From positions 188,374 to 208,373 of the forward strand of contig JAHCIT010000008.1 of the NCBI GenBank assembly GCA_026129095.1: a stretch of DNA of 20,000 bases, written 5' to 3'. Each line of letters begins with the position of its first letter. The stretch's first letter is position 1. This DNA comes from Deltaproteobacteria bacterium (GTDB taxonomy: Bacteria; JAGRBM01; JAHCIT01). The notes under the pieces were generated by a model. The model was not told where the DNA came from. It did no database searches and worked only from the letters and a program-made list of their open reading frames with translations. Positions 2,116 through 19,937 of the stretch are shown one piece after another. The position numbers and the translations under genes were made by a program.

Positions 2116-3600
2116 TCACCGCCGCCGCGCAAACGCCTTGATCCGGCCGGCCGCCGTCCGGTGGCCGTCCATCGCCCCCGCCATGGCGTCCGGACCGTCG
2201 TCCTTCACCGAGGTGCGCGGATAGGCGAACAGCTGGTCGAGCAGGATGCGGGTATCGCCCACGTTCCGGTTCGTGAGCAGCTCGCCCCGTTCCATCACCG
2301 GGGCGGCGCGTCCGATCCGGGTCTCCTTCGCCTCGCGGGCGGTCCACATCGTGAAGGGGAGCGAGTAGCCACGGCGCTGCGCCTCGTACCGGAACGGCTC
2401 CTTATAGAGAGAGGCGAAACCGTTCGACTCGAACCGCCAGACGCCGATCTTCCGGCCGAACCGCTCGTAGATGTCGTAGTGCGCCCGGACGTATTCCTCC
2501 GGGGAATCTTTCCGGATGCGGACCTCGGCGATGTGATGGCGGCCGTCCTTCAGCGCGTCCACGACGATCACCTTGAAGTCGTTTGATCGCCCCTGACCGG
2601 CAGCCGGGTCCGAGTGGGCGGCGAGGCGGAAACCGTCCCAGCGGCCGATCAGCGCGTCGGGATAGGAGGTCTCCCACGACGGCCGGAACATCATGCCGTC
2701 CTCGTTCGGCTCCCCGTCGTACTCCTGCGCGTAGAGACGCGAACCGAGCCGGGCCAGTTCGGCGTCCAGGAACGCGGTGCTCTTGATGAGCGGTGCGATC
2801 GATTCGCCCCGTTCGTCCCGCGAACGCCAGATCCGGCATTCCCAGGCGTGCGAGAATTCCGAGTCGCCTTTTACCAGCCGCGAGAGCGCGGCGGTCTTGG
2901 ACACCAGCGTGCCCACCCAGGTGAGCGTCCAGCCCTTCGGCGACAGGGCCGGAATGACCTTCGCCATCATGTCGGTGAGCAGCGCGTTCACCCGGTCCGG
3001 GTTCCGCGCCAGTTCCTCGTCTTCAAGGTCGTCGAACACGCCGAAGTCGGGACGCTGGCCTCTGGTGACGAGGCCGCGAATCGGCTGGCTGAGTCCCAGC
3101 GCCATCAGCCGGGCGCCGCTGCGGATCGTGAAGTCGGTCTGCGTCCAGGCGCCTTCGGTCCACTGGGGGCCGTAGTCGCACAGGAGGCGCTCGTTCGCCT
3201 CGAACTCGTCGCGCACGGCCGTCACGAAGTTCGAGGCGAGGTCTTCGGTGATCGACTGGACGAAGCCGAACCGGTAGCCGGCGCACAGCATTTTCCAGAT
3301 CGGCATGCCGAACGACGTGACCGTGGATTTTCCGAAGCCGCGGGGGCCGACGGTCGCGGACGGTTTATCCCGGAGCAGCGACACGCCGATCAGCGCTCGG
3401 TGAAACTCCGACAGCTCCGTCTCGAACCAGTGAGGCAGATAGGTGCGGAGGAACCAGCCCGGGTCTTTGGCCGCCCGTTCGCGGCGGAGGCGGCATGCCT
3501 CCGGCGACACATCCTCGAACGGCAGAACCGACTGGAGCCGCTTCGCGCGGATCTCCTCCATCGCCCGGAGGTAGTCACTGATCTTCAGCTGGTGGCTCAC
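2116..3600 (-). CDS. Terminase large subunit (Mu-like)
   Basis: 494 aa; Walker A GPRGFGKST, Walker B VFDDLED, RNase H-type nuclease acidic motifs HSDPA and DDGPDAM; directly upstream of the portal; GTG start overlaps the upstream stop. Confidence 0.92.
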   Translation of the reverse strand: MSHQLKISDYLRAMEEIRAKRLQSVLPFEDVSPEACRLRRERAAKDPGWFLRTYLPHWFETELSEFHRALIGVSLLRDKPSATVGPRGFGKSTVTSFGMPIWKMLCAGYRFGFVQSITEDLASNFVTAVRDEFEANERLLCDYGPQWTEGAWTQTDFTIRSGARLMALGLSQPIRGLVTRGQRPDFGVFDDLEDEELARNPDRVNALLTDMMAKVIPALSPKGWTLTWVGTLVSKTAALSRLVKGDSEFSHAWECRIWRSRDERGESIAPLIKSTAFLDAELARLGSRLYAQEYDGEPNEDGMMFRPSWETSYPDALIGRWDGFRLAAHSDPAAGQGRSNDFKVIVVDALKDGRHHIAEVRIRKDSPEEYVRAHYDIYERFGRKIGVWRFESNGFASLYKEPFRYEAQRRGYSLPFTMWTAREAKETRIGRAAPVMERGELLTNRNVGDTRILLDQLFAYPRTSVKDDGPDAMAGAMDGHRTAAGRIKAFARRR

Positions 3601-4085
3601 CGAGAACGGATCTCCTTGTACCGGTCGATCAGCTCGCGGTTGATGCGGTCGAGGTGCTGGTCGAACCGGCGGGCGAGGTCCGTGTCATGTTTCGCCAGCA
3701 CACCGAGCACCGTGTCGAGGACTTCCCTGGAGATGCCGAGAAAATCGACGCTCCGGTCCACGCGCTGGAGAACTCCGTTCAGCTTTGCGATCCGGTCGAT
3801 CAGCGTCATGAGCCGCTCGCCGGTGTCACCGGCCGAGGCGTCCCGCTCCATTTCCGTGACCAGCACGGCGAGGGTCGCCTGGATTTTTTCGGACACGTTG
3901 ACGCTGGAGGCGATGCGGGTCTTCCGGAGGTCGTCCCACTTTTCGGCGTCACGCCACTTCCGGAGCGTGACCTCCGAAACGCCGGTGAGGTCCGCGATTT
4001 CGGAGAGCGGTTTCCCATCGTCCACATAGAAGGTGCGGGCCTTCGCTCCGGACTCCAGGTATTTGGGCCCGTTCTGGTAACTCAT
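3597..4085 (-). CDS. Putative terminase small subunit (DUF1804/Mu gp27-like HTH protein)
   Basis: ATG 4085 (MSYQNG) with GGAGGG SD; HTH LSEIADLTGVSEVTLRKWRDAEKWDDLR; coupled to the large terminase. Confidence 0.8.
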   Translation of the reverse strand: MSYQNGPKYLESGAKARTFYVDDGKPLSEIADLTGVSEVTLRKWRDAEKWDDLRKTRIASSVNVSEKIQATLAVLVTEMERDASAGDTGERLMTLIDRIAKLNGVLQRVDRSVDFLGISREVLDTVLGVLAKHDTDLARRFDQHLDRINRELIDRYKEIRSR

Positions 4086-4136
4086 CCGCCCTCCGGAGCC
4101 GCCGCGCAATCCGGCGAAGAAGCCCGTTCAGGGCGT

Positions 4137-4583
4137 TCAGGAACACCTGGAGCCGGTCCGGACGATGGCTGGCCCGTCCCCGACTGTTCCGGGCTCCAGG
4201 ACTGGGGATTCCGGCCGGATGCGGCAGCGGTCCTCGCAGGTGCGAAGGCAGTCCTCGCCGCAGGATTTCAGGCAGGGCCCATCGTAACGGCTGGCGCAGG
4301 CAGCGGGCGTGAGCCCGAGTCCGAGCGCGAACACCAGCGCCACCGAGCGGATCCGGACGTTCCGCTTCATCTGGTCCAGGAGCGGCGCGAGGTTGCCGGG
4401 CAGCGCGGCCCGGAAGGTAGCGATGCCGATGCCTTCGAGGGCCTGGGTCATTTCGGCGGAGGTGAAGATGTCGAGGGCCCCGGCGTGGTCTCCCATGAGC
4501 AGCTTCGTCACTGCCTGGAGTAAAACCAGCAGGGCCACGAGGTAGGTCCGGTATCCGGATCCGAGAGTCAGCAGTTTCAGCAC
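4137..4583 (-). CDS. Holin-like membrane protein with Cys-rich C-terminal extension (lysis cassette)
   Basis: 148 aa, GTG start with AAGGAG SD; hydrophobic segments GYRTYLVALLVLLQAV and SVALVFALGLGLTPAAC; lies between endolysin and terminase. Confidence 0.55.
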   Translation of the reverse strand: MLKLLTLGSGYRTYLVALLVLLQAVTKLLMGDHAGALDIFTSAEMTQALEGIGIATFRAALPGNLAPLLDQMKRNVRIRSVALVFALGLGLTPAACASRYDGPCLKSCGEDCLRTCEDRCRIRPESPVLEPGTVGDGPAIVRTGSRCS

Positions 4584-4600
4584 GGGGTTCTCCTTCGTGG

Positions 4601-5044
4601 TTAATGCCGTTCCGGCGGCCGGAACGGCGGTCGGACCTGGATGTGGATGTGGGCGCCCTGGCCGACATCGTGATAAAGCGCGGTGGGGTAGCGGGCGGCG
4701 GGGGAGCCGAACGGCGCGTACGGGAACTCGCGGTTCAGCTTCGTGACGAGGCTTTTGATGGTGGCGGCGTCCAGGTCACGTGTGCGGATGTCCACGGCCC
4801 GGCCGTCCTCGTGCGGCGACTTCACGGGTTCCTGCCGCCCGAGGCGGATCGCCTCGGCGCGGTATCGCGCCTGAGTCTCCGCGTCACGGAAAACGCAGGT
4901 GATCGTGAGGGTCTTGCCGCGCTCGCTTAAGTATTCGGCGGCGGCGCGAATGACAGGCTGCAGCCGCACGTCGGCCCGGAAGAGCTGGTCCTCCAGCTCC
5001 GGGACCTTGAACGCAATCGTGAACTTGGGCGCGGCACCGGCCAT
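4601..5044 (-). CDS. Endolysin, peptidase M15 (Hedgehog/DD-peptidase fold)
   Basis: 147 aa; ITCVFRD...Q, SPHEDGRAVDI (SxHxxGxAxD) and HIHIQ Zn-ligand motifs; first gene of the late operon. Confidence 0.82.
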   Translation of the reverse strand: MAGAAPKFTIAFKVPELEDQLFRADVRLQPVIRAAAEYLSERGKTLTITCVFRDAETQARYRAEAIRLGRQEPVKSPHEDGRAVDIRTRDLDAATIKSLVTKLNREFPYAPFGSPAARYPTALYHDVGQGAHIHIQVRPPFRPPERH

Positions 5045-5130
5045 GCCGCGAGGTTACGGACGGGCGGTTCCGGTTTGCGGGACTAGGGGTTGAGCCGGGG
5101 ACGTTCTAGTGGTGGAGTTTGCGGGCGTTG
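5045..5130 (-). promoter_or_regulatory. Putative late promoter (activator-dependent, probably leaderless transcript)
   Basis: Minus-strand -10-like TAACCT at 5056-5051 sits 6 nt before the endolysin ATG; no SD and no canonical -35; CCCGCAAAC occurs twice upstream (5073-5081, 5117-5125). Confidence 0.45.
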
Positions 5131-5158
5131 CCTCCCCGCAACTGCCTGATCGAGTCCA

Positions 5159-5171
5159 ATGAACTCTCCCG
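5159..5171 (+). repeat. Direct repeat B, copy 1 (ATGAACTCTCCCG)
   Basis: Exact 13-bp match to 6083-6095; both copies are preceded by TCTAGTGGT (5105-5113 and 6048-6056). Confidence 0.7.
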
Positions 5172-5191
5172 GTAGTGGGTCAGTTTGAGGA

Positions 5192-5746
5192 TTAACGGCG
5201 ATTTTTGCGCCGAGCTTCCCGCTCAGCCTTTCGTCTATCTCTGCGATCTGGTTTGTGGCCACCTGTGTTAACCGACCGCTTAGATGGGGGTTCTGGGATT
5301 ACCGGGATAATGTCGCAATATGCGCCACTGCCATCATAGATCAAACGGACAAATCGGAAAAAATCTCTCCCTAAAAGGCCATTAAATGGGCGTGGATTTG
5401 GCGGTGTGGCCATCCCAATCATCTCGGATGTAAAAGTAATTCCTCTTTTTTTGGTACCGTCCCCGACCACCAATGTGATACTCAGCAAATAGACTGGGCA
5501 GTTTTCCGGGACATGGGAGACCCCCGTCATTTCTTCAAATCGGATAGGCACAATCCCCAAAGACTCTGCAATCCCTCTGTCGATAACCGTTTTTTGTGCC
5601 CCAGTATCGACCATAAGGCGCACTTTAACGCCTCCGGCCTGGGCCGAAGCCTCCCCTGCTTGAAGGGGTCGAGTAAGAGTAACTTCTACGAGAGGCCCCT
5701 GAAGGACCAGTGAATCAGCATTGGCGCTCTGGCAACGATGCTTCAC
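5192..5746 (-). CDS. Retropepsin-like (clan AA) aspartyl protease
   Basis: 184 aa; LMVDTGAQKTVI catalytic motif and GLLGRDFF motif; basic C-terminal tail; visibly lower GC than the flanking phage genes. Confidence 0.85.
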   Translation of the reverse strand: MKHRCQSANADSLVLQGPLVEVTLTRPLQAGEASAQAGGVKVRLMVDTGAQKTVIDRGIAESLGIVPIRFEEMTGVSHVPENCPVYLLSITLVVGDGTKKRGITFTSEMIGMATPPNPRPFNGLLGRDFFRFVRLIYDGSGAYCDIIPVIPEPPSKRSVNTGGHKPDRRDRRKAEREARRKNRR

Positions 5747-6003
5747 GCGTAAGAAAGGCCGAACATTACTGCTGTGGTGACAGGTGTCGCGGCTTGTTCC
5801 ACAACGGGGCCGATAACATAGCCAGCCTCAGCCCCAAATTCTTTTAAGGCGGATTCGTAGGCGCTGCGCTCGTCATCGTGGAAGCTCTTTACCGAACCGC
5901 CGAGAAAAACCACCCATTTGCCGGGATGCGTTTTCAGGAGTTCTGGAAGCGCCTTCCTGAATTGCAGAGTTTCCTGTAAGACTTTTTCAGATGTAGTCGT
6001 CAT
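5743..6003 (-). CDS. Small DUF5678-like protein, translationally coupled to the aspartyl protease
   Basis: LPELLKTHPGKWVVFLGGSVKSFHDDERSAY pattern; stop overlaps the protease GTG (GTGA). Start ATG 6003 with GGTGG SD, or 6036. Confidence 0.7.
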   Translation of the reverse strand: MTTTSEKVLQETLQFRKALPELLKTHPGKWVVFLGGSVKSFHDDERSAYESALKEFGAEAGYVIGPVVEQAATPVTTAVMFGLSYA

Positions 6004-6082
6004 ATGGCTCACCACCGTTTTTACAATAACCATCATACGTGTCCATGTCTAGTGGTATCCCAGAAGCCCAACCAGTTCCGCG

Positions 6083-6095
6083 ATGAACTCTCCCG
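6083..6095 (+). repeat. Direct repeat B, copy 2 (ATGAACTCTCCCG)
   Basis: Exact match to 5159-5171. Confidence 0.7.
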
Positions 6096-6194
6096 CTCGC
6101 TGGACCTATGAAGAGCTTTTCGCCGCACACAGGCGAGAACCCCTCTAAACTTACTCGTCCTAATTGGTCCGCCCGAACCCCCACTAGCCTCCGG

Positions 6195-6230
6195 GTTTCA
6201 CACAGAACTCTGCGGGCGCAGTGCGTCAAA
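6195..6230 (+). repeat. Direct repeat A, copy 1 (GTTTCAC-N10-GCGGGCGCAGTGCGTCAAA)
   Basis: 19-bp exact core 6212-6230 equals 7311-7329, plus GTTTCAC at identical spacing (6195-6201 and 7294-7300). Confidence 0.85.
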
Positions 6231-6233
6231 GGT

Positions 6234-6842
6234 CTATTCGCCGGATTTCTGTGCCCGCCGGAACTCCCACGGCGGTTCAGGGCCGTCCTCGTGCCATATC
6301 CCGAGGCGGTCCGCTTTCGCAGCGGCCTCCGCCTCCTCGAGCGCCCGGTCGTCTCCCGCGTACTGCCGGTACCACCAGGCCCACCCGGAGCGCACCATCT
6401 CAATCTCCACGTCACGGCCGTCGTCGGTGGTGACGCGCCCGACGGTTCGCTGGTAGCGGTCGCGCTGCCGGGGCTCGACGATCACGGTGCCCGACGACAC
6501 CAGCGACTCCAGGAATCTCCACGCCTCCTCGCCGCCGGGCTGGCCGTCCCGGCCCCGCTTCGGCGTCTCCGGAGCATCCACTCCGCCGAGCCGAACCGTC
6601 ACGAGGATGGCGCCGGGCGGCAGGCACGCCGGCTCCACATCGAGCGTGTCTCCGTCCTTGACCTTGACTACTCGCGCCGCAAAGGACTTCGAGCCCGCCG
6701 ATACTGGCGCGTCGCAACGGCAATCCAGTGGCGCGGTCTCACTGACCGGCGCGATGCACCCCGCGAGGAGCAGGAGCGCCGCGAAGAGCGCGGTGAGCTC
6801 ACTTCGCGTGCGCGAGTCTGACGATGGCGGACGACAGCTCAT
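6234..6842 (-). CDS. Thermonuclease (staphylococcal nuclease family), predicted lipoprotein
   Basis: 202 aa; DGDT, VRLGGVDAPE, DRYQRTVG, MVRSGWAW, AEAAAKADRLGIW, PWEFR motifs; signal peptide with lipobox LLLLAGC; AAGGGG SD. Confidence 0.9.
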   Translation of the reverse strand: MSCRPPSSDSRTRSELTALFAALLLLAGCIAPVSETAPLDCRCDAPVSAGSKSFAARVVKVKDGDTLDVEPACLPPGAILVTVRLGGVDAPETPKRGRDGQPGGEEAWRFLESLVSSGTVIVEPRQRDRYQRTVGRVTTDDGRDVEIEMVRSGWAWWYRQYAGDDRALEEAEAAAKADRLGIWHEDGPEPPWEFRRAQKSGE

Positions 6843-7278
6843 CGCGGCCCCTTACCGTCTTCTCGGCCGGATCGTAATCCCACCAGAACACCGACTCGGT
6901 TCCGTTGTGCTCGACTTTCACGAAGTGTATCCAGACTGGTTTCGAGCCGGTCACACTGACGCCGGGAACCGTGTTCCGGTCAATCTCCCTCCACCCGCTC
7001 GTGACGGCGTAAACGTCCAGGATTTCCCGGAAGGTCTCCGTCCCCTGTTTCGAGGCGAGGATATTTTCCGTCGCCTGTTCGCGGGTGAGCCCGCCGGGCG
7101 CCTCCGGCCCGCACATCGCGAGCACCACGCCGATCAGGACCCCAAGCACGATGATGCCGAGGCACCCCTTGCCGAGCTTTCGACCCTGCGCTTCAAGCTC
7201 GGCCTGCTTCGCCGCCTTCTGCTCCTCGATCCGGACCCGCTCCTCGTCCCTGATCCGCTGCTCTTCTTCCGGTGTCAT
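6799..7278 (-). CDS. Single-pass membrane protein of unknown function (prophage accessory)
   Basis: ATG 7278 (MTPEEE) with GGAGGGG SD; charged N-terminus, TM segment GCLGIIVLGVLIGVVLAMC, soluble C-terminal domain; directly downstream of the repressor. Confidence 0.75.
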   Translation of the reverse strand: MTPEEEQRIRDEERVRIEEQKAAKQAELEAQGRKLGKGCLGIIVLGVLIGVVLAMCGPEAPGGLTREQATENILASKQGTETFREILDVYAVTSGWREIDRNTVPGVSVTGSKPVWIHFVKVEHNGTESVFWWDYDPAEKTVRGRDELSSAIVRLAHAK

Positions 7279-7293
7279 TGTCACCCCTCCCAC

Positions 7294-7329
7294 GTTTCAC
7301 GCGCCCCGGCGCGGGCGCAGTGCGTCAAA
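7294..7329 (+). repeat. Direct repeat A, copy 2 (overlaps the repressor stop codon)
   Basis: Matches 6195-6230; the TCA at 7325-7327 is the repressor TGA. Confidence 0.85.
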
Positions 7330-8095
7330 TCTTCCGGCCGAGCCAGACGACCCGGCCTTTCAGTTCAAACCCCCGCCCGTCGTTCTCGTCCACCTCGAAC
7401 GATTCGTACCGGGGATTGTCGCTGATAATCCGGATCTTCCCGGACGGCGTCCGCTGCAGCCGCTTTACGGACAGCGCGTCGCCTTGGCGGATGACGTAGA
7501 CGCCGCCGGAACCGACCGTCTTCTGCCGGAGATCCACGAGCAGGATGTCGCCGCCCAGGATCGCCGGCTCCATCGAATCCCCTTCGGCAGAGATCAGACG
7601 GAAATCCTCTTCCGGATTCGAAGTCCGGAGTTCGCGCCGGAGCCACTCGGTGCGGAACGCCATTTTCACGATCTCGCGCTCCTCGCCCACATCGTTTCCC
7701 GGGCCGGCGCTCGCCCGGACATTGAGCAGCGGGATGCGGGCGAAGTCGCGGGCGAACTGGACTTCATAGGCGGATGCCATTTCGGCCAGCCCGGCCTTCT
7801 TCATGGGCCGGACAGCGGAATCCTGCAGGGCGGCAGTATCGTCCGACAGCTCTTCTCGGAATGCCGCCTTCACCAGTTCGGCGGGCTTGCGAAGCATCGG
7901 CCCCTCGCCGGTCTCCAGCCATTTCAGGTTCACCCCGCGAATCGCGAGCGCGGTTGAAACGAGTGTCTTTGGGGCTTCGCTGACGTCGTTTTCCCAAGCC
8001 GAGACGGTCTTTTGCGACACCCCTAGGACCTGGCTCAGGTCGGCCTGAGTCAAGTCGAGTGCATCCCTTAGTGATTTCAACTGTTTACCAAACAT
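7325..8095 (-). CDS. cI: CI/LexA-type phage repressor (XRE HTH plus S24 autopeptidase)
   Basis: HTH LTQADLSQVLGVSQKTVSAWEN; Ala-Gly cleavage site SAGPG; catalytic Ser GDSMEP and Lys VKRL. Start ATG 8095 (alternative 8122). Confidence 0.93.
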   Translation of the reverse strand: MFGKQLKSLRDALDLTQADLSQVLGVSQKTVSAWENDVSEAPKTLVSTALAIRGVNLKWLETGEGPMLRKPAELVKAAFREELSDDTAALQDSAVRPMKKAGLAEMASAYEVQFARDFARIPLLNVRASAGPGNDVGEEREIVKMAFRTEWLRRELRTSNPEEDFRLISAEGDSMEPAILGGDILLVDLRQKTVGSGGVYVIRQGDALSVKRLQRTPSGKIRIISDNPRYESFEVDENDGRGFELKGRVVWLGRKI

Positions 8096-8153
8096 TGGTA
8101 AAATATCTTGACTTAATACCATAATCAGGTATTACTCATACCATAATATGGAA
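8084..8153. promoter_or_regulatory. Lysis/lysogeny switch: three operators TACC-N7-GGTA and divergent promoters
   Basis: O1 TTTACCAA-ACA-TTGGTAAA (8084-8102), O2 TAATACC-N7-GGTATTA (8114-8134), O3 TACC-N7-GGAA (8139-8153); TTGACT -35-like hexamer at 8108-8113; AT-rich. Confidence 0.8.
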
Positions 8154-8378
8154 CCGTTCGAAGTCGCCCATCGCCTCCGCAAAGCCGGACACACCCAAGT
8201 GGACCTAGCCAAGGAGTTCGATTGCACGCAGGGTTTCATCAACCACGTCATCTACGGCCGAAAGTCAAACCTCCGTATCCAGACTCGCATCGCCGAAATC
8301 CTCGGCGAACCCGTTGAATCCATCTGGCCTTTCGCCACCGAAACCACATTACCGCAAATTTCTGGAGGCGCGCAATAG
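8148..8378 (+). CDS. ner: Ner/Cro-like HTH regulator
   Basis: 76 aa; divergent from cI; Ner-type C-terminal RIAEILGEPVESIWP. Confidence 0.82.
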   Translation: MEPFEVAHRLRKAGHTQVDLAKEFDCTQGFINHVIYGRKSNLRIQTRIAEILGEPVESIWPFATETTLPQISGGAQ

Positions 8379-8380
8379 CG

Positions 8381-8848
8381 ATGCCGCAGCGAAGATTAGA
8401 CACCCCCCTGTCTGCGGCTTCGGGAACCGGTGAAGCCGCCAGTGAACTCGAAGGCCTGCCCCTTTTCACCGGCGTTCCACTCGCGCCCGTCACGCGGCCC
8501 GGCGAAGGCCAGCTCGACTGCGGGCCCGGTCTCAAGCGCATTCTCACGGACGCCATGAAGCCGTTCAGCCGTTACGACGTGGCGGCGGGAATCGGAAAGT
8601 TCACCGGCCGGGACATCACCAAAACAATTCTCGACGCCTGGACCGCCGAGTCCAAGGACCAGAACCAGATGCCCGCGCACCTGGTCCCGGCGTTCGTCCA
8701 CGCGACCCAGGACACCGGCCTCATCGAGGAACTCTGCCGGCTCTGCGGCGGCGCGTTCGTGCCGTTCGAGGAAACCCGTCTTCTGAAGAAGGCCCGTATC
8801 CAGAAAACCATCGAGCTGCTGAAGCAGCAGATGAACTCGCTGAAATAG
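8381..8848 (+). CDS. Phage regulatory protein, CII-like (typical second early gene of Mu-like phages)
   Basis: 155 aa; SRYDVAAGIGKFTGRDITKTILDAWTAESK...MPAHLVPAFVHAT pattern; position after Ner. Confidence 0.6.
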   Translation: MPQRRLDTPLSAASGTGEAASELEGLPLFTGVPLAPVTRPGEGQLDCGPGLKRILTDAMKPFSRYDVAAGIGKFTGRDITKTILDAWTAESKDQNQMPAHLVPAFVHATQDTGLIEELCRLCGGAFVPFEETRLLKKARIQKTIELLKQQMNSLK

Positions 8849-8856
8849 GAGACCCC

Positions 8857-9831
8857 ATGCAAGCTGAAATCTCGTCCACACGCCCGCTGCCTGAGCACCG
8901 CTTCGTCGAGGGCATCGATCTGCTCGCCCTGATGACGCCCGTCGGGGAAAAGGTCGAGGTCGTCACCGACGAGGAGCGCGACCACACGGAGACCGTCACG
9001 GTCACGGCTCCGCTCCGTGACCGGGCGCTCCAGGAAATCCACGCCATCGCGTCAAGTTCGAACCGGATCGTGCTGGCCCTCCAGCGTATAGAGCGGGAGA
9101 AGCTCTACGCCGCCTTCGGCCACCGGACCATGCGCGAGTTCCTGGAGTCGCTGTCGAAGACGCTGAAGAAGTCGCTCCGCACGATGGAAGAGAGCCACCA
9201 AATCGCCCGCGGCATCCACCCGGACGTAATCGGCGGCGCCATCGAGACACTCACCCACAAGAAACTGATCGAGGTGGCGAAGCTCGGGCCGGGCGCAACG
9301 AAGGAACGCATCGCCGCCCGCGTCGTCACCGAAACGGGCGAGGACCGGCCGGAAGCCCTGCTCAAGGTGTCCGACACGGAAGTCGTGGATCTCGTGGGCG
9401 CGTCCGTTTCCGAAGTGAAGGGCAAGATCAGTGAAGTGTGCAAGGCGCTCCGGATTCCGGTCAGGGGCAAGGAACCGAAGAAGAAGGTGGGCGAGTTCAG
9501 GGACAAGGTTCCGCCATCGATCCGCGCCGTGGACATCCTGATCTTCCTCGCCGGCCGCAGCGGTCCGGTCCGGACCAGCGACGTGGGCAACCATCTTCGC
9601 AAGCTGAACGGTGACGACGCAAAGAATGCCGACATGGACCCGGCGGCGACCCGCCACCTGCAGGCCTTCGCCGATCACGGAATCGTCGAGAAGATCGAGA
9701 GCGCCGGCGGCAAGGCTGAACGATGGCAGATCATCGGTCAGGTACGCGCCCGGATGATCATCGGTCTGCTGGAGCAGGCCGAGGCGGACGACGGGCTGAT
9801 CCAGAAGGTCCGCAGGCACCTGGAGAAATAA
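8857..9831 (+). CDS. Early protein with DUF3102-like N-terminal region and C-terminal IclR-like winged HTH
   Basis: 324 aa with AGGAG SD; LQRIEREKLYAAFGHRTMREFL segment; C-terminal IRAVDILIFLAGRSGPVRTSDVGNHL...HLQAFADHGIVEK...RWQI. Confidence 0.55.
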   Translation: MQAEISSTRPLPEHRFVEGIDLLALMTPVGEKVEVVTDEERDHTETVTVTAPLRDRALQEIHAIASSSNRIVLALQRIEREKLYAAFGHRTMREFLESLSKTLKKSLRTMEESHQIARGIHPDVIGGAIETLTHKKLIEVAKLGPGATKERIAARVVTETGEDRPEALLKVSDTEVVDLVGASVSEVKGKISEVCKALRIPVRGKEPKKKVGEFRDKVPPSIRAVDILIFLAGRSGPVRTSDVGNHLRKLNGDDAKNADMDPAATRHLQAFADHGIVEKIESAGGKAERWQIIGQVRARMIIGLLEQAEADDGLIQKVRRHLEK

Positions 9832-9860
9832 CCCCTCATTCACGCGAAGCGGAGGCAAGC

Positions 9861-10361
9861 ATGGGCACGACCGAAACAACGGACGAAAAGAAGGTGGTCC
9901 CCTTCCGGCGGAAGGAGGAACTGGGATCACCGCCGCTCGATTCGCTGCCGGAACCGGCGGATGACCACGAACGCCGGCTCATCGACATGTTCCGGAAGAC
10001 CGAGGACGAGCTTCGCTCCGAGAAGGAAGAGACCGCGCGGCTCGAACACGAGGTCGCCCGGATGGCGGACCACCTTCGCCTCGTGACGGCGAAGGTGGCC
10101 GCGGCGGCGCCGGGCCGGATGGAGTCCCTCGAAGGCCGCATCCGGGAACTGGAACGCCAGCTCCGTACCGCGCCGGACCTGCAGGCGGAAACCGAGGAGA
10201 TGCTCCAGCGGTCAGCGCAGCTCAGGCGCGGGCTAGCGCTGATCGACCCCGCCGCCTGGAAGCCGAACGATACCCAGTTCGCCCTCGTCATGGGGTCGCT
10301 CGCGCAGACCCGCGAGGCCATTGAACGGTTCGCCGCCGCAGCCGGAGGAGACCTGCCATGA
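9861..10361 (+). CDS. Hypothetical coiled-coil early protein
   Basis: ATG 9861 (MGTTETT) with GGAGG SD; E/R/L-rich heptads; ATGA overlap with the next gene. Confidence 0.7.
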   Translation: MGTTETTDEKKVVPFRRKEELGSPPLDSLPEPADDHERRLIDMFRKTEDELRSEKEETARLEHEVARMADHLRLVTAKVAAAAPGRMESLEGRIRELERQLRTAPDLQAETEEMLQRSAQLRRGLALIDPAAWKPNDTQFALVMGSLAQTREAIERFAAAAGGDLP

Positions 10362-10654
10362 GCGACCGCATGATTTCCCGGGCGCGGCACGGCCGCGACG
10401 CACTGCTCCTCGAACGGGCGGCTCTGCTGAACGAACGTCCCACGGCCGAGGCGCTCCGGCGGATACACATCGCCGCCGTCGCCATGGATTATGTGCGCGG
10501 CTACACGGATCTGGACCAGCTGCTGGAAGCTGTCCGGTCGGACCCGGACGAAGACAACAGCGGCTCCGGCACGCCGCCGGAACCGGAGCCCGAACCGTCC
10601 GTCTATTCCCCCGACGAAGATGCCCTCTGGCACGACGAAGGAGTCGCCGGATGA
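10358..10654 (+). CDS. Hypothetical protein with acidic C-terminus
   Basis: 98 aa; GGAGG SD; ATGA overlaps at both ends. Confidence 0.7.
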   Translation: MSDRMISRARHGRDALLLERAALLNERPTAEALRRIHIAAVAMDYVRGYTDLDQLLEAVRSDPDEDNSGSGTPPEPEPEPSVYSPDEDALWHDEGVAG

Positions 10655-11049
10655 AGGCGCTCAGGATCGCCGGACCGTCCGAAGCCGCCGCCCGGCTGCG
10701 CTGTCTCGGCGGCGACGCCGGGTCCGTCCGGGCCGTGGCGTTCTTTGCCGGGACGGGAACGGCGAAGGCCGCCTTCGTCTCCGCCTGGTCTGCCGTCGCC
10801 CGCGAAGGCGACCGGCTCATCTGCTGGCCGCGCAGGCTGCTCACGCTGGAGGACATCGCCAGGAAAGTCGTCAGGCTCCGGCTCTGCGGCATGACGGCCG
10901 CGCTGGTCGAGGTCCGGCCGTCCGACATACCCGAAGGACTGAACGTTCTAATCGAGACCGCTGCGACGCGGGAACTCCCACTGATCCTCATGGATCGCGA
11001 CCCGGGCCCGCTGTTCGCAGTTCACCACTCCGGAGGGGCCACGGCATGA
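10651..11049 (+). CDS. Hypothetical protein
   Basis: ATG 10651 (MKALRIAG) with AAGGAG SD; ATGA overlaps at both ends. Confidence 0.65.
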   Translation: MKALRIAGPSEAAARLRCLGGDAGSVRAVAFFAGTGTAKAAFVSAWSAVAREGDRLICWPRRLLTLEDIARKVVRLRLCGMTAALVEVRPSDIPEGLNVLIETAATRELPLILMDRDPGPLFAVHHSGGATA

Positions 11050-11219
11050 ACTGCATCCAAGCGATGGACCTTTCGCACTGCATTCAGCTGGTGATCTTCA
11101 CCGGGATGGCCTCGTTCGCCCTCGGGTGGCTGTGGGGTGAGCGGGCCGGCCGCGAGGAGATCCTGGAGCGGCTGAATCCGCCCGCACCGGAGCCCAACGG
11201 AAAGGACCGGACGAAATGA
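11046..11219 (+). CDS. Small membrane protein
   Basis: 57 aa from ATG 11046 (MNCIQAMD) with GGAGG SD; one hydrophobic helix; coupled to both neighbours. Confidence 0.6.
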   Translation: MNCIQAMDLSHCIQLVIFTGMASFALGWLWGERAGREEILERLNPPAPEPNGKDRTK

Positions 11220-11485
11220 GCACCGGGGTCTTCGCCGAGAACGTCCGGCAGGCGCTGGAGTTCGTCGAGATGCTTGGTCCCCACTCCATGCTGACGCTCG
11301 CCGACATCATGGACGAGTTCGGCGTGTCGATGCCGGCGGCGAAGAAGATCGTGGGCCGAGCCCGGCATCTGGGCTTCGCGGTGCAGACGGTCCATCTCGA
11401 CAGCGGGATCCACGTCTACCGGATCGACACGGACGAGCTGAGGCGTGTCATGCAGATCGCGGCGAAACGGAGGAAAACCAGGTGA
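11216..11485 (+). CDS. Small winged-HTH-like protein
   Basis: 89 aa; LTLADIMDEFGVSMPAAKKIVGRARHLGFAV...GIHVYRI. Confidence 0.65.
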   Translation: MSTGVFAENVRQALEFVEMLGPHSMLTLADIMDEFGVSMPAAKKIVGRARHLGFAVQTVHLDSGIHVYRIDTDELRRVMQIAAKRRKTR

Positions 11486-11859
11486 ACCCCAGGACGCACA
11501 CACCAGAGGAAATGAAGGCCATGCTCCGCCAGTTCATCGAGAACCGGTGCCGGGGCCGCGAAAACTCGATGAAGCTGAACGCGCTGGCCCGCCAGTTTTT
11601 GACGGACCGGAAGGCGGTGCAGGCGGCGATCCAGGGGCTGATCGCCGACGGGGTTCCGGTCGGCACGTCGAAAACCCCTCCGGCCGGTGTCTTCCTGATC
11701 GAGAGCGAGGCGGAGCGTCTCGCAGCCGCGAACATGCTGATCCGCACGGCGGTGAGCGAGCTGAAGCGGGCGGCGGCGCTCAAGAAGATCCCGCTCGGAG
11801 ACGTGTTCCGTCAGCTCGAACTGGGGTTCGTCCCGCAAATGGGGACCGGCAGGCCCTAG
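11482..11859 (+). CDS. Winged-HTH DNA-binding protein
   Basis: 125 aa; GRENSMKLNALARQF...RKAVQAAIQGLIADGVPVGTS...GVFLI pattern common in prophage wHTH proteins; GGAGG SD. Confidence 0.7.
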   Translation: MNPRTHTPEEMKAMLRQFIENRCRGRENSMKLNALARQFLTDRKAVQAAIQGLIADGVPVGTSKTPPAGVFLIESEAERLAAANMLIRTAVSELKRAAALKKIPLGDVFRQLELGFVPQMGTGRP

Positions 11860-11893
11860 GGTGGTCCGATGACAAGGACGGGGTGACGACCGG

Positions 11894-15986: not shown

Positions 15987-16201
15987 TATTTTTCCCGTTG
16001 CTGGCCGCGCTGCTGGTGTTCATTCTCTGGGTCGTCTTTCTGGCCGGGGCCGCCGCCACCTCCAGCTGGTGGCTGCTAGCCGCCTGTGTGCTGTTCGGCA
16101 TGGTGTTTTTCCTGCTGCCCATGGCCATATGCTCCTTGGCCGTCTCCGCACTGCTCAGGCTCCCGGCCGGTGACGGAGAAGGCCGCTGTGAGGACCGATG
16201 A
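15983..16201 (+). CDS. Small two-TM membrane protein
   Basis: 72 aa, very hydrophobic; GGAGG SD; coupled to both neighbours. Confidence 0.65.
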   Translation: MIFFPLLAALLVFILWVVFLAGAAATSSWWLLAACVLFGMVFFLLPMAICSLAVSALLRLPAGDGEGRCEDR

Positions 16202-16626
16202 AGACTGACAAGGCCATTGCTCCGCTCAGTGCAGACGTGCCTGACCGGATGCGGTCGGCGCGCCTGATCCGCACGGAGCGGGCGCTTGCGGCGCGCAGAG
16301 AGCGAGGAGCCGAGGAGCGTCTCCTCCGGGCGGCCGAGCTGGCGAGCGGTCTCGCCCGCGAGGAGATCACGGGAAAGAGCCGCCGGGTCCCCGCCGCCGC
16401 CGTCCGGCATGCCGTCTGGTACATCGCTGTACAGACGCTCGGCCTGAGCCTCGCGCTCACGTCCGAGGTGTTCGGCGGCACCGGCGGGCGCGACCACACG
16501 ACGATCCTGCACGGCGTGAACCGTGTTCGAAACGACATGCACACGGGGGGACCGCTCGCCGATCTCGTCGCCGGGATCGCCGGTGCGTGGAACGGTATCC
16601 TGGAGGAGGAGCGGTCATGCGGATGA
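16198..16626 (+). CDS. Stand-alone DnaA domain IV (Bac_DnaA_C HTH) protein
   Basis: 142 aa; GKSRRVPAAAVRHAVWYI...LGLSLALTSEVFGGTGGRDHTTILHGVNRV carries the DnaA signature GGRDHTT; no AAA domain. Confidence 0.85.
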   Translation: MKTDKAIAPLSADVPDRMRSARLIRTERALAARRERGAEERLLRAAELASGLAREEITGKSRRVPAAAVRHAVWYIAVQTLGLSLALTSEVFGGTGGRDHTTILHGVNRVRNDMHTGGPLADLVAGIAGAWNGILEEERSCG

Positions 16627-17493: not shown

Positions 17494-18236
17494 GCGCGTC
17501 ATTGATAGAATGGACCGAGGAGACCTGGAACCCGCTTACGGGCTGCACAAAGATCAGCGCCGGGTGCCAGCACTGCTATGCCGAACGGATGGCGAAGCGG
17601 CTCCAAGCGATGGGTCTGGATCACTACCGGGCCGGATTCGAGTTGGCAGTGCACCCCGAGAAGCTCAACATTCCTCGCCGCTGGAAGCGGCCACGCATGG
17701 TGTTCGTGAACTCCATGAGCGATCTGTTTCACGATCGGGTGTCCGATGAGTTCATCCGTGACGTGTTCCGGGTGATGAACGAGACGCCGTGGCACACCTA
17801 CCAAGTGCTGACGAAGCGGGCGCAGCGGCTGTGGTCTCTCTCGCGCGGGCTCACCTGGACCCCTAACATCTGGATGGGAGTGAGCGTGGAGTCCCATTCC
17901 TGGCGCTCGCGTATCCGTCTCTTGAGTGACGTCGCTGCCGCCGTCCGGTTCCTCTCGTGCGAGCCGCTGCTCGGGCCGCTACCGGATATGGCCCTGCAGG
18001 GAATCCACTGGGTGATCGTGGGCGGCGAATCGGGGCCAGGAGCGCGGCCGATGCACCCCGACTGGGCCGAGAGCCTGCTGTATCAGTGTCGGGGCGCCGG
18101 AGTGCCATTCTTCATGAAACAACTAGGTGGCCACCCGGACAAGCGTGGGCAGATCGAACAGCTCCCGGCACACCTGCGCGTGCGGATGTTTCCCGGCGAC
18201 ACCTGGACGGAAACGGTGGAGCCATGCCAGCCCTGA
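17490..18236 (+). CDS. Phage Gp37/Gp68 (DUF5131) family, radical-SAM-related three-Cys protein
   Basis: 248 aa; IEWTEETWNPLTGCTKISAGCQHCYAE, FVNSMSDLFH, LTKR, FLSCEPLLG, WVIVGGESG, PFFMKQLG. Confidence 0.92.
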   Translation: MSASLIEWTEETWNPLTGCTKISAGCQHCYAERMAKRLQAMGLDHYRAGFELAVHPEKLNIPRRWKRPRMVFVNSMSDLFHDRVSDEFIRDVFRVMNETPWHTYQVLTKRAQRLWSLSRGLTWTPNIWMGVSVESHSWRSRIRLLSDVAAAVRFLSCEPLLGPLPDMALQGIHWVIVGGESGPGARPMHPDWAESLLYQCRGAGVPFFMKQLGGHPDKRGQIEQLPAHLRVRMFPGDTWTETVEPCQP

Positions 18237-18646
18237 ACTTCCAGAAGCGGTTCGTTCCGATGATCCGGAGCGGGGAGAAGTGCCAGACGATCCTGGCGCA
18301 CCGGAACGACGGCCGGCCGCCGTGCAAGCCCGGCGACCGGCTGAAGCTCTACACCGGCATGCGGACGAAGGGGTGCAAGCTGGTGGCGACGGTGGAGGTG
18401 ATCAGTTGCCTTCCTGTCCGAATCTTCGGGACGGGTTTCGAGGTCACACACGAGGAAGACGAGACCGACTACTGGCACGGTCTCTCGCTCTACTCCTTCG
18501 CCCGGCTCGACGGTTTCCGGGACTGGACCGAACTGCGGGACTGGTTCGGCCGGACCCACGGCCTGCCGTTCGAGGGCTGGTTGGTGAGGTGGGATTCTAA
18601 TGGATCCGCGGGGGAACCGGTCACAACCATTAGTCCTGATCGCTGA
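18224..18646 (+). CDS. ASCH-domain-like protein
   Basis: ATG 18224 (MPALNFQKRFVPMIRSGEKCQTI...KPGDRLKLYTGMRTK...FARLDGF); GGTGGAG SD. Confidence 0.75.
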   Translation: MPALNFQKRFVPMIRSGEKCQTILAHRNDGRPPCKPGDRLKLYTGMRTKGCKLVATVEVISCLPVRIFGTGFEVTHEEDETDYWHGLSLYSFARLDGFRDWTELRDWFGRTHGLPFEGWLVRWDSNGSAGEPVTTISPDR

Positions 18647-18815
18647 CCGTGATCCTTTTTTCCTTATTATATTCAGTGCATCCCTTGTTCACACACACCC
18701 AGACCTCCTGATACGAGCCTTTTCTTTGAAGCATTCTGGTGACGTATTTCCCAACCAGATCAGGGCGTGGCGACATTGGCTGATGACATTTCGGACAGTT
18801 TTTCGCGGCGAGCAT
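18630..18815 (-). CDS. Small zinc-ribbon protein (antisense, low-GC insert)
   Basis: 61 aa from ATG 18815 (GGGAAGG SD); CPKC...WVCVNKGC; occupies the AT-richer segment ~18600-18870. Confidence 0.55.
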   Translation of the reverse strand: MLAAKNCPKCHQPMSPRPDLVGKYVTRMLQRKGSYQEVWVCVNKGCTEYNKEKRITVSDQD

Positions 18816-18982
18816 GCCTTCCCGGTTCCAGGTTGGGGAACCGCCTCCAAGTAACATGTTAAAGGAGCGGCCCGGCCGTGAGCAAACACGGCTGGACCAC
18901 CTCGCCGGCGGTGCGACCCGCTGGTCCGGCCTACGGCTCCCGCCCTGACGTCAGAGCGCCGGGAGCATAGCACAGAAAGATC

Positions 18983-19741
18983 TTGCCCATGCTGATCCCA
19001 TGGATGGGCGGCAAGCGCCGCCTGGCGAAGCACCTCTTGCCGCTCTTCCCCGATCACACCTGTTATGTCGAGCCGTTCGCCGGCGGGGCGGCGCTGTTCT
19101 GGATGAAGGAGCCGTCGAAGGCTGAAGTCCTGAACGACCTGAATGGCGAGCTGGTCAACCTCTACCGGGTGGTGCAGCACCATCTGGAGGAGTTCGTCCG
19201 GCAGTTCCGCTGGTCGCTTGTGTCGCGGAAGCTGTTCGACTGGCTAAAGACCGCCCAGCCGGAGGGGCTCACCGACATCCAGCGGGCGGCGCGGTTCTAC
19301 TACCTCATGAAAGGGAGCTTCGGGGCGAAGCCCACCGGTTTCACTTTCGGGACGGCCACCACCTGTCCGCCGAAGCTGAACCTGCTCCGGATCGAGGAGG
19401 AGCTGTCGGCGTGTCACCTGAGGCTAGCCCAGGTGACGGTCGAGAACCTGGACTGGAAGACGTGCATGGGCCGCTATGACCGGCCGCACACGTTCTTCTA
19501 CCTGGACCCGCCCTACTGGGGGACGGCTGACTACGGGGTGCCGTTCGAACTGGCAGAATACCGGGCTCTGGCGGACCGGCTCCGTTCGATGGAGGGAAAG
19601 GCCCTGCTGTCGGTGAACGACTGTCCGGAGATGCGGGAGGCGTTCGCGGGGCTGCGAACCGAAACCGTCGGGGTGACCTACACGGTCGGTGGCAACAGCA
19701 ATGCGGTGAAGCGGTCGGAACTGGTCATTCGGAACTGGTGA
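18983..19741 (+). CDS. DNA adenine N6-methyltransferase (D12/Dam family)
   Basis: 252 aa (TTG 18983 or ATG 18989); PWMGGKRRLA, YVEPFAGG, NDLN, YLDPPY, SELVIRNW. Confidence 0.93.
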   Translation: MPMLIPWMGGKRRLAKHLLPLFPDHTCYVEPFAGGAALFWMKEPSKAEVLNDLNGELVNLYRVVQHHLEEFVRQFRWSLVSRKLFDWLKTAQPEGLTDIQRAARFYYLMKGSFGAKPTGFTFGTATTCPPKLNLLRIEEELSACHLRLAQVTVENLDWKTCMGRYDRPHTFFYLDPPYWGTADYGVPFELAEYRALADRLRSMEGKALLSVNDCPEMREAFAGLRTETVGVTYTVGGNSNAVKRSELVIRNW

Positions 19742-19785
19742 GTGATGTCTACCGGACCCTACGAAATAGACAGACCGGTGTCAAA

Positions 19786-19937
19786 GCGGGTTTCAGTTTT
19801 CGAGGAAATTGCGGTTTCGATTTTGATGTGCCTGAGTTTCAGTTTCGTCACGCAGAAGCCCGATTTCACCGAAAAAACAACTGAATGAAACCCGGTTTAT
19901 GACAACTTTCGGGTAGTTATTATGACAATAGTTTACA
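19786..19937 (-). repeat. Candidate prophage end with transposase-binding repeats
   Basis: Minus strand reads TGTAAACTATTGTCATAATAACTACCCGAAAGTTGTCATAAACC from 19937; TTATGACAA at 19897-19905 and 19920-19928 (23-bp period); further GTTTC boxes at 19790, 19814 and 19836. Confidence 0.7.

Follow-up and report, generated by a model that had tools for sequence, protein, structure and literature searches.

Which process placed four genes between the repressor and the lysis genes of a transposable prophage, and do the direct repeats around these genes mark them as exchangeable cassettes? The question is raised by a 20,000-nucleotide stretch of DNA from a Deltaproteobacteria bacterium (NCBI GenBank assembly GCA_026129095.1, contig JAHCIT010000008.1, positions 188,374 to 208,373 of the forward strand), which is referred to as "the window" in this study. 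Leftward from the cI-type repressor gene, the minus strand carries genes for a membrane protein, a nuclease, a DUF5678-like protein and a protease, followed by the likely endolysin gene. The original prediction, made from the letters of the sequence, described two adjacent two-gene cassettes, each bracketed by its own direct repeat: repeat A (6195 to 6230 and 7294 to 7329) around the first two genes and repeat B (5105 to 5171 and 6048 to 6095) around the other two, with cargo gained or lost by recombination at these repeats. Both repeats are present at these positions and exceed what shuffled sequences give, and all four genes lie on the minus strand, co-oriented with cI, as had been stated.

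Once relatives were found, the apparent repeat-bounded cassette system resolved into two known processes: an insertion sequence (IS) of the IS1 family dropping passenger genes between the immunity operon and the lysis genes of the prophage; and the duplication of an element that follows stop codons, repeat A. We read the interval as the accessory part of the lysogeny-side transcription unit of a transposable prophage, made up of an extended immunity operon and an IS-derived block with a foreign gene pair, with repeat A as punctuation; we would put the chances of this reading, taken as a whole, at about even. The interval is an ordinary accessory-gene region, not a new gene-exchange system. Its parts will not surprise a phage specialist, yet they are concrete and testable.

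Repeat B consists of an exact 9-mer (at 5105 and 6048) and an exact 13-mer (at 5159 and 6083) in the same order, separated by spacers of 45 and 26 nt. Shuffling the two intergenic regions reached the 13-mer alone in 6 of 2000 trials; a looser, chained 11+8 match was reached in 76 of 200,000. A metagenome-assembled genome (MAG) of a sister genus, G003, encodes on its contig C35 a 287-aa open reading frame (ORF) that matches Pfam DDE_Tnp_IS1 at 1.5e-8, and it is this one match of the G003 protein that assigns the element to the IS1 family. A sensitive search of G003 returned two loci, on contigs C35 and C179, that match window positions 5171 to 5205. The 25 nt counted from the stop codon of the C35 transposase gene match 5171 to 5195 at 24 of 25 positions, the last 8 codons of the same gene match 6060 to 6084, within the spacer of repeat B copy 2, at 23 of 25, and the similarity of the terminal repeat at 5171 to the C179 end extends to 5205 (32/35). 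Among the window, C35 and C179 loci, the similarity stops sharply at one base, as it does for an element terminus. The C179 and C35 copies are flanked by an identical 8 nt in the orientation of a target duplication. The comparison indicates that G003:C35 (1-1750) and G003:C179 (5604-6180) would be parts of one passenger-carrying IS1-family element split over two contigs. This element has identical 25-nt ends, an 8-bp target duplication and, seemingly, at least 1.4 kb of passenger DNA with small ORFs, none of which gave a Pfam hit above the cut-off.

The pieces of such elements can be laid out along the window. An IS1-family terminal repeat occupies 5171 to 5195 on the plus strand, with its outer end at 5171, and is 24/25 identical to both ends of the G003 element. 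Next to it, at 5105 to 5171, lies repeat B copy 1, a diverged second copy of the IS end, with its tip at 5105, the composite motif TAGTGG-N3-AGTTTG from 5107, and a hairpin at 5114 to 5146 that has no U tract (z -0.7). Across the 3.67-Mb genome, this composite motif is confined to two sites, 5107 and 5173. On the far side of the two genes, at 6048 to 6191, is a 144-bp remnant resembling a miniature inverted-repeat transposable element (MITE), with inverted CTAGTGG tips at 6049 to 6055 and 6181 to 6187; it holds repeat B copy 2 (6048 to 6095). On the plus strand, such CTAGTGG tips stand at 5106 and 6049; the minus strand has one at 6187. Four of the 13 CTAG sites of the window fall in the two intergenic regions (5083, 5106, 6049 and 6184), mostly due to the IS-end tips. 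Copy 2 of repeat B aligns as an IS end with an internal deletion, at a score that 0 of 3000 shuffles reached, and copy 1 could be a diverged full-length IS end, a more weakly supported assignment. The 9-mer corresponds to the tip of the terminal repeat and the 13-mer to its interior. Judged by these alignments, repeat B is the sequence shared by two predicted IS1-family end remnants, not a recombination linker; the conserved intergenic linker of the original prediction thus gives way to pieces that point to transposition.

In G003, 4 nt separate the transposase 3' end from the terminal repeat; here the distance is 864 nt and takes in the protease and DUF5678-like genes. We propose that 5105 to 6191 would be a patchwork derived from IS1-family elements, namely the terminal repeat at 5171, the second end at 5105 and the MITE-like remnant at 6048 to 6191; and that the low-GC (guanine plus cytosine) gene pair sitting between the IS pieces would have been delivered by IS1-type transposition, either as the passengers of an IS or by one-ended mobilisation. 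The genome itself has no IS1 transposase (tblastn of the G003 transposase gave no hit at 1e-3), which makes the cargo immobile now, a fossil. The DUF5678-like and protease genes therefore probably arrived by IS1-type transposition and can no longer move. Several points weigh against this part of our reading. Repeat B copy 1 aligns to the IS end with a marginal score, which 131 of 3000 shuffles reached. The gene-carrying piece, 5171 to 6047, has one recognisable terminus only; inverted tips are present for 6048 to 6191 alone, and no target duplication flanks the IS-derived block by eye. No left terminal repeat was found upstream of the C35 transposase gene, and the exact identity of the 9-mer and the 13-mer between otherwise diverged IS ends is left unaccounted for.

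At the upstream edge of the gene pair there is a sigma-70-like promoter match on the minus strand (6051 to 6023; TAGACA, 17 nt, TATTGT), whose -35 hexamer lies on an IS-end tip (6051 to 6046). It is the sole such match in 4400 to 8400, where shuffles give a mean of 1.1, and it is a match to the consensus only. It is possible that this would serve as a hybrid promoter for the two-gene insert; hybrid promoters are known at IS ends (PMC9330008).

The two genes between the IS pieces are compositionally foreign. A change-point analysis delimits an island of GC fraction 0.516 at 5140 to 6164 against 0.667 outside, with a likelihood that is flat across 5100 to 5180 on the left and 6060 to 6260 on the right. 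The upstream gene (5743 to 6003, minus strand, ATG at 6003) encodes an 86-aa DUF5678-like protein with a Pfam DUF5678 match of 0.0015, below the cut-off, an Atlas lead of 0.90 with 211 shared features, and 2 other homologues at 72% and 59% identity. The downstream gene (5192 to 5746, minus strand) is a 184-aa frame for a retropepsin-like aspartic protease (Pfam Asp_protease_2, 9.7e-8) with a DTGA motif and a basic C-terminal tail; its stop codon falls within the IS terminal repeat. Homologues of the protease form 16 other clusters, at 41-60% identity, and PADLOC gives a weak match to the candidate PDC-M08B (5e-4). The public call is 140 aa long; the longer form is supported by homologues of 183-187 aa, which span 100% of the 184-aa frame. 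No match to the protease was obtained among plasmids or phages, and no relevant literature was found on DUF5678 or PDC-M08. This rare pair of a DUF5678-like and a retropepsin-like protein may be a toxin-antitoxin or defence module, and a reasonable guess is that the cargo genes serve exclusion or defence in the lysogen.

The repressor gene (7325 to 8095, minus strand, ATG at 8095) encodes a 256-aa cI-type protein with a helix-turn-helix (HTH) and an S24 peptidase domain (Pfam Peptidase_S24 1.2e-18, HTH_3 4.1e-9; PHROG 4 7.3e-48). It is followed by the gene for a 159-aa single-pass membrane protein (6799 to 7278, minus strand), which belongs to no Pfam or PHROG family and has an obvious single hydrophobic helix, and then by that for a secreted lipoprotein of the staphylococcal nuclease type (6234 to 6842, minus strand; Pfam SNase 6.9e-25; lipobox LLLLAGC by eye), in which residues 12-145 of the 149 of the thermonuclease in the PDB are matched (6.9e-9). 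The identities proposed earlier for the nuclease, the protease and the membrane protein are borne out, and only the DUF5678 assignment is weak.

Another genome from a sister genus, G001, carries a different Mu-like prophage (G001:C2:72000-91999, 9128-11566) with a MuA-type transposase and a Mu I protease. This prophage and that of the window have in common only the immunity module, consisting of cI, the small membrane protein and a CII-like gene. The G001 cI is 40% identical to the window cI over the S24 part, and a 57-aa protein whose ATG overlaps the cI stop codon matches residues 1-55 of the membrane protein (38% identity, E 7e-14). Repeat A is absent from the junction between these two G001 genes. 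The following gene in G001 encodes a lipoprotein with no similarity to SNase or to the C-terminal part of the membrane protein, and after it come a hairpin and a T run (by eye). The C-terminal ~100 aa of the membrane protein are unique to the window. Besides G001, none of the phylum's genomes has a homologue. As the 57-aa homologue sits beside cI without repeat A, the membrane-protein gene is an old partner of cI, joined to it without the repeat, and not recent cargo. This disposes of repeat A as the boundary of a swappable membrane-protein cassette. Nor does gene content switch at the repeats in this protein-level comparison, made with G001 only: the second, exported protein differs between the two prophages, and homology breaks inside the membrane-protein gene. 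We propose that cI, the membrane protein and the secreted SNase lipoprotein would form an extended immunity operon; the conserved module of cI plus a small membrane protein, then an exported lipoprotein, may be an exclusion system.

Upstream of cI, the 52-nt gap to the divergent ner-like gene (8096 to 8147) holds the divergent repressor/early-promoter region, with AT-rich operator-like repeats by eye and no call by the promoter scan. The gap contains TTGACT, a 7+7 inverted repeat (TAATACC / GGTATTA) and two direct ATACCATAAT repeats, all noted by eye. These repeats are likely operators with divergent promoters.

The other border of the interval is marked by a late-promoter motif, which separates lysogenic from late transcription. 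An 18-mer is present in three exact copies, all within the prophage on the late strand and none elsewhere in the genome, and each is followed by 9 nt and a TAnnnT hexamer. The exact copies lie before the endolysin gene (5083 to 5066), before the head genes (at -629) and before the tail-fibre genes (at -13931), where negative coordinates denote positions to the left of the window on the same contig, in window numbering. A diverged copy (11830 to 11862, plus strand), with 3 mismatches and identical spacing and hexamer, precedes the transposase gene. The head-gene copy, with its hexamer, is exact in the phage relative of G003, which has 77% identity overall. A search of IMG/VR for the 18-mer returned one contig, which is unrelated. 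These units resemble activator-dependent late promoters, and we infer that they act as such. If so, the four cargo genes stand outside the late operon, downstream of cI. The claim that the interval is a cargo region survives in part: it is an accessory block on the lysogeny side, between cI and the first late promoter, and the DUF5678-like/protease pair is foreign by composition, and the membrane-protein gene is not swappable, as the G001 comparison shows. From their position, the cargo genes would be expressed in the lysogen.

The first late promoter (5051 to 5083, minus strand) comprises the 18-nt motif at 5066 to 5083, 9 nt, the TAnnnT hexamer at 5051 to 5056 and 6 nt before the endolysin ATG. 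With the hexamer only 6 nt from the ATG, the endolysin mRNA may be leaderless. The gene itself (4601 to 5044, minus strand), the first of the first late operon, encodes an M15/LAS-type peptidase, the likely endolysin, with a weak match to Pfam Peptidase_M15_2 (0.0093) and SxHxxGxAxD and HxH motifs by eye. A paralogue with 45% identity lies on another contig (G000:C7:11286-11669), beside an SLT-domain protein, and may be part of a second phage-like region. Directly after GemA, at 16198 to 16626 on the plus strand, there is a gene for a 142-aa protein with a DnaA-C-like HTH (Pfam 5.7e-9), a candidate Mor/C-type activator of the late promoters.

What, then, is repeat A? Its two copies, read on the minus strand, are identical at 28 of 36 positions; the 8 mismatches all fall within the central 10 nt, flanked by blocks of 7 and 19 nt that match perfectly. 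Copy 1 (6195 to 6230) begins 3 nt past the stop codon of the nuclease gene, and the IS-derived block adjoins it with its outer end. Copy 2 (7294 to 7329) takes in the cI stop codon (7325 to 7327), as originally observed, and can form a 9-bp GC-rich hairpin (-17.8 kcal/mol) without a U tract. Two such matches in the window arose in 0 of 200 shuffles. With up to 2 mismatches allowed, the 3.67-Mb genome has no further copy of the 19-mer, and no similarity between the copies extends beyond the blocks. There is no third copy in the prophage; allowing up to 9 mismatches over the 26 fixed positions gave two extra hits, both at 9. Metagenome contigs contain the exact 19-mer at 18 loci, each in an unrelated context and lacking the 7-mer, and in G001-G005 only hits with 3 mismatches were seen, at the level of controls. 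The clustering of the mismatches (P <= 4e-5 against scattered mutations) points to either a bipartite constraint or one multi-base event.

Several identities were tried for repeat A and rejected. The original prediction had allowed that it could be a duplicated promoter element, and TTGACG is indeed present; neither copy has a -10 hexamer at 16-19 nt, and the scan calls nothing, which leaves no case for a sigma-70 promoter. It is not a genome-wide repeat or a late-promoter motif, as only two copies exist, and it bears no relation to the late motif or to the operators. No Rfam hit was obtained at E <= 1 in 4000 to 9000, and z-scores and core simulations give no significant RNA structure.

If the IS-derived block is taken out, copy 1 lies ~26 nt upstream of the late-promoter motif and is almost the sole sequence between that motif and the nuclease stop codon. 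At this site, read-through from the lysogenic promoter into the lysis genes would need to be stopped. This location of copy 1, between the nuclease stop codon and the late promoter, favours a punctuation or terminator-like role. We propose that repeat A would be a duplicated piece of transcript punctuation: a terminator, an attenuator, or the binding site of a factor doing that job. Both copies can be folded with the conserved blocks paired (-9.9 and -17.8 kcal/mol). We hold this assignment, a post-stop-codon punctuation or terminator-like element, with low confidence; the position and layout weakly suggest it, and we favour it over a scar, a linker or an operator. The folding data weigh against it. 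Given random 10-mer cores, copy 1 folds equally well in 20-56% of trials and copy 2 in 0.4-4.5%, as do 297 of 2000 and 442 of 2000 shuffles of the copies' own cores; the z-scores of the repeat A folds are -1.5 and -1.3, and those of overall structure range from +0.95 to -1.5. Neither copy has a U tract, and the matching end of the G001 operon has, by eye, a hairpin and a T run.

The alternative that survives best also concerns repeat A, given its two copies and the lack of any relative that carries it. It may be a neutral scar without function, left by a recent 36-bp duplication through illegitimate or unequal recombination and then altered by one multi-base replacement of the core. We consider this possible, if doubtful. 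The restriction to two copies with perfect flanks speaks for a recent event, most of the GC-rich core of copy 2 can be read as the reverse complement of the adjoining block (GCGCCC/GGGCGC), as templated mutation gives, and the hairpin statistics are as unremarkable as a scar would have them. However, an exact 10-for-10-nt swap with 26 flanking positions perfect is unusual, both copies occupy the same place relative to a stop codon, and before the IS insertion copy 1 would have filled the only space available for an operon terminator.

Less probable, and in our judgement unlikely, is that repeats A and B are conserved linkers for homologous recombination of gene cassettes, with mini-circle intermediates, like the promoter/stem-loop (PeSL) cassettes of T4-type phages. 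Direct repeats do flank both gene pairs, and the second gene after cI does differ, being SNase here and an unrelated lipoprotein in G001; ORFs flanked by PeSLs are gained, lost and form circles in RB49/phi1 (PMC2839356). Yet each repeat has two copies, whereas PeSLs are many; repeat A has no promoter consensus and repeat B is IS debris; the exact homology amounts to just 19 and 13 nt; and in G001 the membrane-protein gene stands beside cI without repeat A. Sequencing runs bear on the same question. The sequence across both repeats is unchanged in Logan contigs of the probable source run and in short contigs of 3 other activated-sludge runs, drawn from 2 studies. The identical arrangement in an independent assembly and in other runs shows that it is not an assembly artefact. 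No deletion joint at either repeat was seen in the contigs of these 4 runs, which drop rare variants, and the parts of the window without cover in the run contigs prove nothing. Two read-contig joints that were listed (3051 to 4649 and 6352 to 7221) were set aside, as their sides measure at most 23 nt and come from other DNA.

A slim chance only is left to repeat A as paired sites for a phage DNA-binding protein, either a regulator looping the 1.1-kb segment or a transposition protein, with half-sites TTTGAC and GTGAAA, for although conservation is bipartite around a free 10-nt spacer, the ends form an imperfect inverted repeat (by eye), GTTTCA plus a T-rich sequence recurs near both prophage ends, copy 1 has CGGGTTTCAC in common with one of these repeats, and GTTTCAC occurs 7 times on the prophage plus strand against ~2.8 expected, the 7-mer is enriched only modestly, nothing like the 19-nt block is present at the prophage ends or in the cI/ner operators, and the 23-bp spacing of the half-sites is odd. 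Integron gene cassettes were rejected, since there is no integrase among the ORFs of the window and the repeats are not imperfect palindromes of the attC type.

An extension of the punctuation reading can be formulated, and we regard it as improbable. Repeat A would then be a phage-specific insulator or terminator without a U tract, placed just before the late promoter to close both the cI cistron and the immunity operon, and would also be a portable junction for exchanging lysogen-expressed exclusion genes among the Mu-like phages of this little-sampled phylum. If true, repeat A, travelling with the membrane-protein/exported-protein module, would be a two-copy analogue of the T4 PeSL in a transposable phage.

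Accessory genes beside the repressor of a temperate phage, known as morons, are exemplified by lambda cI-rexA-rexB. The arrangement here is alike in that the genes have the orientation of the repressor gene and are not part of the late operon, in that the insert deviates in base composition, and in that a promoter-like site stands upstream of the insert and a hairpin downstream (a consensus match and a hairpin without a U tract). It is unlike morons in that the insert is embedded in IS1-family remnants, a concrete delivery route, and in that two Mu-like prophages that otherwise differ have the membrane protein next to cI in common. The low-GC pair is best seen as a moron that an IS probably brought into the slot beside the immunity genes of a transposable prophage, and the processes involved are of known kinds. 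A slot between the repressor and the lysis genes is also found in KS10, in which two low-GC hypothetical genes (11-12) lie between repressor gene 13 and holin gene 10 (PMC2628397).

For the IS1 family, the concepts of the transporter IS (tIS), of MITEs and of one-ended IS mobilisation have been set out (PMC9330008). The arrangement here is alike in that an IS1-family terminal repeat and a transposase 3' end flank passenger genes, the G003 relative seems to carry passengers and has an 8-bp target duplication, and the IS tip gives the adjacent gene a -35-like hexamer. Unlike a tIS, the block here has no transposase, no second clean terminus and no target duplication, and is a decayed patchwork.

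The PeSLs bear comparison with repeat A, in that short repeated intergenic elements flank non-essential ORFs, begin at the stop codon upstream and are capable of forming a stem-loop. Comeau et al. reportedly wrote in 2014 on PeSLs as mobile regulatory cassettes of T4-type phages. The PeSLs are numerous, measure ~100 bp, carry a consensus early promoter and have a proven recombination into circles (Arbiol et al. 2010, PMC2839356). In contrast, repeat A has two copies of 36 bp, no promoter and no observed recombination product.

The late-promoter units of the window have their counterpart in those of phage Mu, where the late promoters Plys, PI, PP and Pmom depend on an activator. In both cases, a few copies of one motif lie over the -35 region, a -10 is recognisable, and the sites head blocks of lysis, head and tail genes; a candidate small HTH activator follows GemA here, as given above. 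Unlike in Mu, the motif has an unrelated sequence and a diverged copy also precedes the transposase gene.

The prophage in which all this lies is complete and of the BcepMu/KS10 type, with a length of 38,428 bp (~38.4 kb); the window, its right half, holds most of it. Its ends, at -18501 and 19926, were set by inverted terminal repeats and have the form TG...CA, and its GC fraction is 0.665 against 0.615 for the genome. Marker matches of the BcepMu/KS10 type include the PHROG 310 transposase (6.8e-40), PHROG 296, Portal_Mu (3e-87), Phage_Mu_F, Phage_Mu_Gam (2.1e-32), GemA and Mu Gp36. In the window, the minus strand carries genes for the Mu-type portal, MuF, TerL, DUF1804, the M15-like peptidase, the four cargo proteins and the cI-type S24 repressor, and the plus strand those for the ner-like protein, a CII-like regulator, a DDE transposase, an AAA+ MuB-like protein, Gam, GemA, the small HTH protein and a Dam-type methylase. 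Further head, tail and baseplate genes of the prophage follow leftward of the window. The minus strand thus has the repressor, lysis and late genes, and the early and transposase genes run divergently on the plus strand, which is the layout described for KS10 and BcepMu (PMC2628397).

Searches of IMG/VR, GTDB contigs, metagenome contigs and cultured phages gave no relative that covers the interval at the DNA level. Queries of IMG/VR with cI, M15, SNase, TerL, the protease and the membrane protein returned no close relative; identities reached at most 41% for cI in GTDB contigs and at most 28% for TerL against cultured phages. The host phylum is represented by only 6 species-level genomes in the set that was searched. 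The G003 MAG contains, on contigs C79 and C334, phage fragments of 77-82% nucleotide identity, in which the packaging/head part and the right end of the phage were binned; they cover only 1 to 2602 and 18004 to 19927 of the window, not the cI-endolysin interval. As a by-product, this study maps in full a transposable prophage whose host phylum had just six species-level genomes among those searched.

At the prophage ends, a target duplication was not found: the 5-nt flanks differ by eye, and as the contig stops 74 nt past the right end, the flank there is possibly not the true neighbour. The contig terminates in a poly-G run at this point, 74 nt beyond the right end. Each prophage end has two TGTCATAA-type terminal repeats, mutually inverted (19786 to 19926, and -18501 to -18390), and arrays of the motif GTTTCA(C/G)TTTT are found at both ends in the same orientation.

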